Origin: Octopus vulgaris
Lineage: Eukaryota
DNA length: 64,000 bases
Direction of reading: 5' to 3'
NCBI GenBank assembly: GCA_951406725.2
Contig: OX597823.1
Span: 14,508,001 to 14,572,000, forward strand
Position numbers and translations under genes: made by a program. Under the pieces are notes generated by a model. The model ran no database searches, was not told where the DNA came from, and saw only the letters and a list, made by a program, of their open reading frames with translations. This document shows positions 29,747 through 32,866 of the stretch, in pieces (position 1 is the first letter of the stretch; each line of letters begins with the position of its first letter).

Positions 29747-32700
29747 GTAGGTCCCGGGTTGATTCGGGGTTAACCACAGTAAATAAGGTACTCAATACAT
29801 AGCAGAGTAAAATTAATTTATTATATAGAAGGACACTAGTCCCTATATACACATATATACACATACACACATATATATATATATACATACACACACATAC
29901 ATATACATACACACACATATATATATATACACATACATACACATATATATATATATATATACACACACATGTGTACCCATGCATATCTACACATACACAC
30001 ATATATATATACACATACAAATACAGACCCATTCCCTAATTTTAATTTTATTATCTTCGTTTATTACTTTTGTTATCTTTGGCCGCTTGGTCACAAACAT
30101 CTTGGCTATGACAGCCAGTCCATTTATCTGTCTACTGGAAAACAAGCACTCATTCACTCACGCACACTCTTTAGCACGTACACTCACTCATTCGTACACT
30201 CATACACATACACGCACGTACGCGTTATATTCATACATACATACATCTACATACATTCACGTATAAACACATACGTACGCGTACCTACAGATTCATGTCT
30301 ACACTCTTAGAAGGCTAGTCTATACATATACACCAATAAATATAAATACACACACATACACGTACACCTACATACAAATACATACATGTATATATATATA
30401 TATATATATATATATATATATATATATATATATATATACATATACACATACACATATATACATATTCACACACATATACACACATATACATACACACACA
30501 TATATACATACACATATATACACATATACACACATATACACATATATACACACATACACATACATACATGTACACACATACACATACATACGTATACATA
30601 CATACATACATCCATACATCCATACATACATACATTTATACACATACACACACCCACATACATACATATATATACGCGCATATATATATCCATATATATA
30701 TATATATATATATATACATATATATATATATATGTGTGTGTGTGTGTGTATGTATGCATATACGTATGTATGTATGTACATGTGTATGTATATATGTGTG
30801 TAAGTGTGTGTATATATGTAAATGTAAGTGTGTGTGCTTGTATGAGAATATATGTATGTTTGCACACATGTATATATGTGTGTGTATGTGTATGTGTATA
30901 TATATATATATGTATGTATATATGTATGTATATATATATATATATATATATATATATATATGTGTATATATGTGTGTATGTATATATATGTGTATGTGTG
31001 TGTATGTGTATACACATGTGTGTATGTGTATGTATGTATGTATATATATGCGTGTGTATGTGTATGTGTATATGTACATATACGCGTACGCTCGTGTGTT
31101 TATGTATATGTAGGTACGTAGAGTTATCTATGTGTGTATTTATATGTACATGTGTAAGTATGTGTATATATATATATATATATATATATATGTGTGTGTG
31201 TGTGTGTGTGTGTGTGTGTGTGTGTGTGTGTGTGTGTGTGTGTGTGTGTGTGTATGTGTGTATGTGTATATATATGTGTATGTATGTATGTATATATATG
31301 TATATATATATGTATATATATATATATATATATATATATATATATATATATATATCTATCTATGTGTGTAAGTTTATATGTATGTATCCGTCTATATAAT
31401 AGGTAACTGCACGTACATATACTTAATATTTTTTATTTATTATTTATTTTTTGAGTATGCATGTAAGTATGAATATAAGGAGGCGCGTGTGTGTGTGTGT
31501 ATGTGTAAGCATAGATATATGTATACTCTTACGCATGGGTGTACTTATGTGTATATATGGACGCGCGCGTGTGTGTGTGCGTGTAAGGGGACGCATGTAC
31601 ATGTGTATGTGTGTGTATGAGTATATGAGTATGTATGTATGTGTGTGCGTATATTTGTATATGTATGTATGTATGTGTAGGTGTGTGTATGAATATATAT
31701 GTATATATGTATATGTATATATATATATATATATATATATATGGATATATATATGCGCGTATATATATGTATGTATGTGGGTGTGTGTATGTGTATAAAT
31801 GTATGTATGTATGGATGTATGGATGTATGTATGTATGTATACGTATGTATGTGTATGTGTGTACATGTATGTATGTGTATGTGTGTATATATGTGTATAT
31901 GTGTGTATATGTGTATATATGTGTATGTATATATGTGTGTGTATGTATATGTGTGTATCTGTGTGTGAATATGTATATATGTGTATGTGTATATGTATAT
32001 ATATATATATATATATATATGTATATATATATATATATACATGTATGTATTTGTATGTAGGTGTACGTGTATGTGTGTGTATTTATATTTATTGGTGTAT
32101 ATGTATAGACTAGCCTTCTAAGAGTGTAGACATGAATCTGTAGGTACGCGTACGTATGTGTATATACGTGAATGTATGTAGATGTATGTATGTATGAATA
32201 TAACGCGTACGTGCGTGTATGTGTATGAGTGTACGAATGAGTGAGTGTACGTGCTAAAGAGTGTGCGTGAGTGAATGAGTGCTTGTTTTCCAGTAGACAG
32301 ATAAATGGACTGGCTGTCATAGCCAAGATGTTTGTGACCAAGCGGCCAAAGATAACAAAAGTAATAAACGAAGATAATAAAATTAAAATTAGGGAATGGG
32401 TCTGTATTTGTATGTGTATATATATATGTGTGTATGTGTAGATATGCATGGGTACACATGTGTGTGTATATATATATATATATATGTGTATGTATGTGTA
32501 TATATATATATGTGTGTGTATGTATATGTATGTGTGTGTATGTATATATATATATATGTGTGTATGTGTATATATGTGTATATAGGGACTAGTGTGCTGG
32601 GTGTGCATATATTTTTATTTTTTATTTTTTATTTTTTATTTTTATTTTTTATTTATTCTTCTATCTAATTTAACACTGACTCCTTGACCACTCCCCCAAG

Positions 32701-32866
32701 TATGATATTTTGCGCTATGCCTACCCCCAAAAAGTCCCCCACCTACACCCCTTTAAACCTGCCTAAATGTATAAATGCCAATACAATTCTTGTTAACTAG
32801 CTTCCTGAAGATTTCTCTTGAATGAAACAGTACTAGTCCTGTAGAAGCTCCTTCTATATAATAAAT
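29747..32866. mobile_element. 3.1-kb palindromic non-coding Penelope-like element with hammerhead
   Basis: Near-identical ~890-bp inverted arms (29833-~30722 / ~31712-32595); outer 18-bp inverted match (29816-29833 / 32849-32866); (TA)n flanks. Confidence 0.75.
32799..32849 (+). ncRNA. Type I hammerhead ribozyme
   Basis: AGCUUC-CUGAAGA-UUUC UCUU GAAU-GAAA-CAG-UACUAGUC-CUG-UA|GAAGCU: 6-bp stem I, 4-bp stem III, palindromic ACUAGU loop, GUA triplet. Confidence 0.8.

Follow-up and report, generated by a model that had tools for sequence, protein, structure and literature searches.

The element described here occupies positions 29747 to 32866 of a 64,000-nucleotide stretch of Octopus vulgaris DNA (contig OX597823.1, positions 14,508,001 to 14,572,000), hereafter called the window. 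Two copies of one sequence lie head to head in it, between units of a host repeat. The features are listed below in their order along the window, with the strand in brackets; PLE stands for Penelope-like element.

29186-29300 (+): host repeat unit (about 120 bp) on the left side of the insertion, 82% alike to 32897-33011 in the same orientation
29747-29815 (−): left-only terminal extension of 69 bp, read as a PLE 'tail'; its end lies just past a short hairpin whose loop is AC-rich, and (TA)n follows; putative member of the family
29816-29833 (−): 18-bp segment identical by alignment to 32849-32866, which lies directly 3′ of the hammerhead
29834-30733 (−): left arm, the shorter 5′-truncated copy, abutting the post-hammerhead segment through a 254-bp deletion
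30020-30345 (−): left copy of the non-microsatellite core, in three islands
30717-30740 (no strand): inner junction of both copies, within a self-complementary (TA)n run
30734-31692 (+): spacer of mainly microsatellite sequence, interpreted as the part of the right copy that lies further 5′; family membership putative
31693-32594 (+): right arm, including the core at 32083-32408, which is highly repeated in sequencing runs X1, X2, and X14
32595-32848 (+): right-only segment with a T-rich tract, a C-rich stretch, and the hammerhead; the most repeated part of the element
32799-32849 (+): type I hammerhead motif, with the predicted cut between 32843 and 32844 and a self-complementary helix III loop
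32840-32858 (+): predicted alternative hairpin of cut site and tail, removing helix I in the monomer
32849-32866 (+): the right copy's short 3′ end, which continues into (TA)n
32897-33160 (+): two further host repeat units, right of the insertion, with (TGTA)n between them

Local alignment of the left arm with the right arm gave 894 aligned bases with 4 mismatches (0.45%), and the indels between the arms, one of 8 bp and one of 6 bp, both fell within microsatellite, in agreement with the near-identical inverted arms of about 890 bp described in the initial annotation. The irregular microsatellite pattern was also confirmed to be duplicated between the arms: the longest exact match of right-arm sequence 31718-32080 was 241 nt to the left arm vs 38 nt to the remaining window, and that of 32420-32585 was 166 nt vs 27 nt. 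Perfect purine-pyrimidine alternating runs of at least 20 make up 54% of the element and 16% of the window. Some other parts of the initial annotation had to be revised. The gap in the left copy is present, but its size is 254 bp and its limits, given as 32596-32848, can be placed either as 32595-32848 or as 32596-32849. The left copy does carry a longer tail, but its first 18 bases are common to both copies (32849-32866 in the right copy), and the left-only part is thereby shortened from 29833-29747 to 29815-29747 (69 bp, single copy in the window). The unique core exists as three islands (30020-30200, 30226-30266, and 30285-30345) and not as one block of about 300 bp. The 959-bp spacer shares the polarity proposed for it, its GC skew (+0.67) agreeing with that of the right arm (+0.65; left arm, −0.65), but as evidence this agreement is weak because the host (TGTA)n of the left flank is likewise skewed (+0.79). 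Diverged echoes were noted within the spacer, 31340-31450 being about 72% alike to 32540-32650 and a part of the core recurring at 80% over 50 bp (within 31340-31510); the element body may therefore have grown through internal duplication. The 254-bp segment was considered as a GT-AG intron and rejected, since neither deletion placement has those ends.

Both outer ends of the palindrome are element 3′ ends facing (TA)n, and duplication of the host flank is absent. The host repeat of about 120 bp, found at 29186-29300, 32897-33011, and 33057-33160, alternates with (TGTA)n. The flanks are collinear copies of this unit in the same orientation (82% and 73-75% alike), and when joined in thought they give a microsatellite-then-unit pattern, as is seen before the first unit. 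This restoration of the array pattern indicates that the element interrupts a (TA)n run of an older array. A direct repeat of the 3′ segment, such as a pseudo-LTR from a partial tandem, was not found at the locus; it is not obligatory for truncated insertions.

The element had been described as protein-free, and the searches agreed with this. The sole open frame of the core has 47 residues, for which no homologue was found among proteins of 84-2000 residues sharing three words (a weak test), and all three element frames scanned lacked a Pfam family. The core frame at 32271-32411 was considered as a remnant of a PLE endonuclease and rejected, both the homologue and the Pfam searches being empty. 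A frame for PLE reverse transcriptase and GIY-YIG endonuclease was not found in 29747-32866 and could lie 5′ of the truncation.

The hammerhead at 32799-32849 is of type I, with a 6-bp helix I, a complete core, and three helices in the predicted fold, and lies near the 3′ end of the element; the motif is thus as intact-looking as first reported. Helix II is 3 bp long with U.U at its base instead of the usual pair, and helix III is 4 bp long with a self-complementary loop. A strict custom descriptor detected two hammerhead motifs in the window; all 150 resampled backgrounds lacked such a motif. No Rfam hammerhead match was obtained in the window at the gathering score or in 32500-33000 at E up to 10, where 11 weak Rfam matches, none of them hammerhead, were observed. 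The folding energy of the motif was no better than that of shuffles (z 0.01).

In the computed folds, the hammerhead cut off at 32852 folded well, with a helix I probability of about 0.99. For the monomer with its natural tail up to 32866 this probability was 0.02, the cut site being buried by the rival hairpin; tail shuffles gave an equal loss of helix I in 11 of 500 cases. For a dimer, computed for the window copy only, the double-hammerhead fold had −30.4 kcal/mol vs −23.2 kcal/mol for two monomers. These calculations predict that the tail shuts the hammerhead off in a single RNA, and that two RNAs pairing via helix III form a double hammerhead. Such predicted gating is consistent with the dimer model for animal hammerheads, as given in the available text of PMC4209133; the new detail would be the tail-gated monomer with a dimer-only fold.

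Two further observations were made around the hammerhead. The sequence 32582-32600 is complementary to helix III and is located at the 5′ breakpoint of the left-copy deletion; it is possibly a decayed second helix III. At −18.3 kcal/mol, its pairing with helix III comes at ranks 13-14 among the 21326 windows compared, the better-ranked ones including six that represent the antisense self-match or three other loci counted repeatedly, and has near-zero probability in whole-region folds; the long-range stem around the deletion is weak (−8.4). The sequence 32785-32800, before helix I, resembles a 3′ splice site, as do the variant upstream sequences among the loose ends described below. Drosophila virilis Penelope has an intron ending at helix I (PMC4209133, available part), and no spliced joint at 32785-32800 was listed among mapped contigs and reads of four runs.

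Sequencing runs indicated that the element belongs to a repeated family. Among 24 listed runs, 19 held 61-81% of the 78 sampled words of 32090-32868; these 19 came from 8 studies and three organisms, one of which is possibly the source of the window. The shares in X20-X22 and X24 were small. Mapping on 32086-32935 covered four of the 24 runs and yielded 7855 contigs for X1, 1940 for X2, and 273 for X14, with 17 of 30 bins covered in each and the others skipped as repeats (32168-32235, 32392-32662, and 32852-32935). From the raw-read run X23, eight reads were obtained, all on the hammerhead, indicating that this run either is without the high-copy family or was heavily filtered. Both the core and the hammerhead segment are highly repeated, as judged from the contigs of X1, X2, and X14 and from the 19 listed runs. 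The mean summed depth of bins 32666-32839 over that of bins 32260-32375, which is no measure of true copy number, was 2.4, 3.6, and 6.0 in X1, X2, and X14, respectively, while a family of palindromes would give 0.5. The hammerhead segment being deeper than the core, the palindrome is taken to be the product of one insertion and not the normal form of the family, contrary to what had been supposed. An excess of 3′ sequence is expected where copies are 5′-truncated. Altogether, a dispersed multicopy family with 3′ excess (from summed depth) and a microsatellite target (from the flanks) was found, as is characteristic of PLEs. No contig or read linked the core to the hammerhead or spanned the locus in the four runs, and no joint was listed, the intervening repeats having been skipped.

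Family variants within the hammerhead were found at 32809 (free core position 7), 32815 (helix II wobble), and 32832 (loop III). These are three of the 12 listed substitutions and all fall at tolerated places, a weak indication since 59 of 153 possible changes are tolerated (about 0.06 for three), and variants are as dense upstream (7 in 133) as they are within the hammerhead (3 in 51). The other base at 32832 makes up 70-87% of family depth in the contig runs and gives a shorter loop III palindrome. Loose ends at 32799-32805 accounted for four rows, among 19 of 68 rows. Two of the four are an inverted copy of the hammerhead start, in X23 with five reads (14 of 15 letters matching by eye) and in X1 with 15 contigs (20 of the 22 nearest consensus letters, by eye). 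The X1 consensus, with an agreement of 0.79 and a median of 14 letters, is however a mixture, and library chimeras can also take the form of perfect palindromes. Some other family copies apparently join head-to-head at the hammerhead. The remaining two rows carry other upstream sequences, not inverted copies. Ten core bases at 32311-32320 are, by eye, the reverse complement of the sequence before helix I in the variant copies of X1, X2, and X14, which may be chance. In X14, a substitution (59%) and a one-base deletion (24%), both rare in X1 and X2, were enriched at 32117-32122 and possibly mark a distinct, perhaps expressed, subfamily. RNA editing was considered for the T>C excess at 32117 and set aside, the subfamily difference being simpler given that a nearby deletion is enriched alongside. 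A scan with the hammerhead pattern gave no match in metagenome contigs or in viral sequences, and a looser pattern gave two in metagenome contigs; a core 24-mer gave none in viral sequences and one in prokaryote genomes. The three matches from the pattern scans were rejected as relatives, because similarity stops at the pattern and the matches are thus by chance.

According to the available text of PMC8557442, PLE insertions are 5′-truncated, frequently bear at their 5′ end a truncated copy in inverse orientation, carry a tail of 30-40 bp at one end, show a (TA)n bias in Naiad and Neptune, and lack a readable target duplication. At the present locus, an inverted 5′-truncated copy is joined at the 5′ end with both 3′ ends outward, the putative tail is one-sided, the target is (TA)n without a readable duplication, and a type I hammerhead is present. 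The match supports the PLE-type origin originally suggested for this element, and the palindromic layout itself is already known PLE behaviour; the left-only extension measures 69 bp vs the 30-40 bp reported for PLE tails. Most likely, the locus is genuine and represents a head-to-head insertion of PLE type that looks young and derives from a hammerhead family of high copy number. We consider it highly probable that this was a PLE-type double insertion, whether of a non-autonomous or of a truncated autonomous element. That the 3.1 kb represent one insertion of two 5′-truncated copies of a high-copy, non-coding hammerhead element, with a PLE enzyme acting in trans, is favoured by a small measure over the sum of other readings. 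Non-autonomy as such is likely, and a mobilising PLE was not found, the window containing no PLE frame. With respect to age, the 0.45% difference corresponds to about 0.6-1.3 million years at the rate quoted in the available part of PMC13282606, assuming that the arms were once identical and without mutual conversion, and is consistent with the youth first ascribed to the element.

For the mode of insertion, we propose four steps. First, a PLE endonuclease would cut both strands of the (TA)n in the spacer between host repeats; the target is observed and the enzyme presumed. Second, each broken end would prime reverse transcription on element RNA, with start points 69 nt apart, leaving the short right end at 32866 and the tailed left end at 29747. 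This step is modelled on Anolis Poseidon in vitro: the available text of PMC11167929 reports that purified PLE protein acts on both strands of AT-rich sites, cutting as well as extending them, that two internal RNA start sites downstream of the hammerhead define the tail, and that ribozyme cleavage is not required in vitro. Such two-start, both-strand activity leads us to expect two cDNAs from both broken ends. Third, the right cDNA would extend about 2.1 kb, while the left cDNA would omit 254 nt, exiting at the base of helix I, and then extend about 0.9 kb further. One of the two placements of the observed deletion has its limit exactly on the final base of helix I, which is 5-6 nt away from the predicted cut. 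As judged from one case, the likeliest cause of the deletion would be that the reverse transcriptase jumped on its template where the ribozyme was folded or had been cleaved. Fourth, the cDNA ends would be joined by annealing of the self-complementary (TA)n at the observed junction, 30733/30734. Each new copy would bring microsatellite with it, including fresh (TA)n targets.

The alternative with the best standing, a possible though clearly less probable one, is that both copies represent the 3′ portion of an autonomous PLE with a microsatellite-rich 3′ untranslated region of more than 2 kb, its frame having been lost by 5′ truncation. In the available text of PMC4209133, most PLE copies are 5′-truncated and most hammerheads are solitary remnants, and in X1 the depth declines toward the 5′ side. 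Recently active PLE insertions of Octopus vulgaris average 5.4 kb (1,829,278 bp in 336 insertions; PMC13282606, available part), so an autonomous PLE would have room for a frame and a long non-coding part. In contrast, no coding trace was found across the 2.1 kb of the right copy, and no frame opens in the hammerhead or the tail, whereas the frame of Anolis Poseidon starts inside the hammerhead (PMC11167929, available part). It is improbable that a single PLE-type copy was inserted first and that an inverted duplication at the locus, through fork stalling or break repair in microsatellite, produced the left arm afterwards. One template would explain that irregular microsatellite is common to the arms almost base for base, and the junction does lie in (TA)n; the 69 terminal bases of the left copy, however, are absent from the right copy and from the remaining window, and on both outer sides the palindrome stops where an element 3′ end meets (TA)n, the host flank being unduplicated. 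That the element is a Helitron, or else a TA-targeting DNA transposon of fold-back or MITE-like type whose terminal inverted repeats measure 0.9 kb, is very unlikely. Long inverted arms, a TA target, and the lack of a frame would suit such a transposon, but the ends are not mutual inverted copies (the 254-bp and 69-bp parts are one-sided), the hammerhead segment is deeper than the core, and the ribozyme is strand-specific. Helitron end motifs are absent from the element ends. An assembly or read fold-back artefact is equally remote, even though inverted PLE structures trouble assemblies (PMC8557442, available part), because the flanks are unmirrored, collinear copies continuing one host array, 4 substitutions and 2 indels separate the arms, and either side has private sequence that the other lacks.

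Within the preferred reading as a PLE-type double insertion, the element resembles several known systems, as far as the available texts of the cited sources describe them. With the endonuclease-bearing hammerhead PLEs Penelope/Poseidon, Neptune, and Hydra (PMC8557442, PMC4209133, and PMC11167929) it shares an inverted 5′-truncated copy at the 5′ end, a putative one-sided tail, a target that is AT-rich or (TA)n, and a type I hammerhead close to the 3′ end, for which activity as a dimer is expected. Unlike these, the octopus element has no reverse transcriptase/GIY-YIG frame in 2.1 kb and no tandem pseudo-LTR at the locus, its tail is 69 bp long (30-40 bp in theirs), more than half of its body is microsatellite, and one copy has lost the ribozyme. 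Minimal PLE hammerheads have a long helix II and no helix III, whereas the octopus motif has a 3-bp helix II with the U.U base and a 4-bp helix III with an 8-nt loop; a U.U at the base of helix II is likewise present in an axolotl retrozyme family. Non-autonomous PLEs such as Chlamydomonas MRC1 (PMC8557442) are also non-coding, with PLE-type insertions and microsatellite targets, but are without a canonical hammerhead and have their 3′ ends in common with an autonomous partner that is known, whereas the octopus element has a hammerhead and no known partner. Naiads are without canonical hammerheads and, in cephalopods, exist as remnants only (PMC8557442). Animal non-LTR retrozymes (PMC7229834; bioRxiv 10.64898/2026.07.22.740005) are non-coding, have a type I hammerhead, and are thought to depend on PLEs, but are built from tandemly arranged, hammerhead-bearing units a few hundred bases long and form circular RNA. 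The octopus element has one hammerhead and a body of at least 2 kb, and tandem hammerhead units of 150-450 bp were not found in 28500-34000; the label 'retrozyme-like' proposed by the initial annotation thus does not hold in the strict sense. In O. vulgaris, 190 PLE families together account for 6.83% of the genome (PMC13282606, available part), and the available portion of the supplement makes no mention of hammerheads. A description of such a cephalopod family was not found in the literature searched; repeat libraries (Repbase, Dfam, and the Zenodo library of PMC13282606) were outside this search and may hold a plainly named entry.

The role of PLE hammerheads is still open, according to the available texts of PMC8557442 and PMC11167929. 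The breakpoint at the end of helix I, the junctions at the hammerhead start, and the predicted tail-gated, dimer-only fold would allow direct tests of that role in one high-copy family. A far-reaching and rather doubtful reading is that the element is a kilobase-long non-autonomous PLE passenger of very high copy number, whose body is both cargo and target, seeding its own sites and serving as a main microsatellite source of the genome, with the hammerhead as a gated switch (off in single RNAs, on in paired RNAs) and the cut or folded ribozyme setting the breaks for deletion and inversion. If the switch exists, the pairing of two RNAs would fit two templates held together for a double-ended insertion. 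An abundant retroelement that is more than half microsatellite is a testable source of the microsatellite load of the genome, and palindromes of this kind, if transcribed, would be ready sources of long double-stranded RNA.

The second hammerhead motif in the window belongs to an unrelated unit of about 250 bp at 38282-38030 (−), lying between two (TA)n runs. It is also of type I, with its core starting from 38203 and a 4-bp helix II, and the unit ends in nearly the same 16-17-nt motif as the element studied. This end motif, defined after the matches were known, occurs three times in the window and in none of 200 resampled windows. The unit probably represents another family, inserted as a short PLE-type copy or as a retrozyme monomer. 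Near 38500-39000 (−) lies a broken stretch that we take to be transposase-like. Elsewhere in the window, broken LINE pieces were observed at 4363-5922 (−; reverse transcriptase and zf-RVT) and 11635-12165 (+; reverse transcriptase), and a C2H2 zinc-finger frame at 52540-53022 (+) was listed among them.
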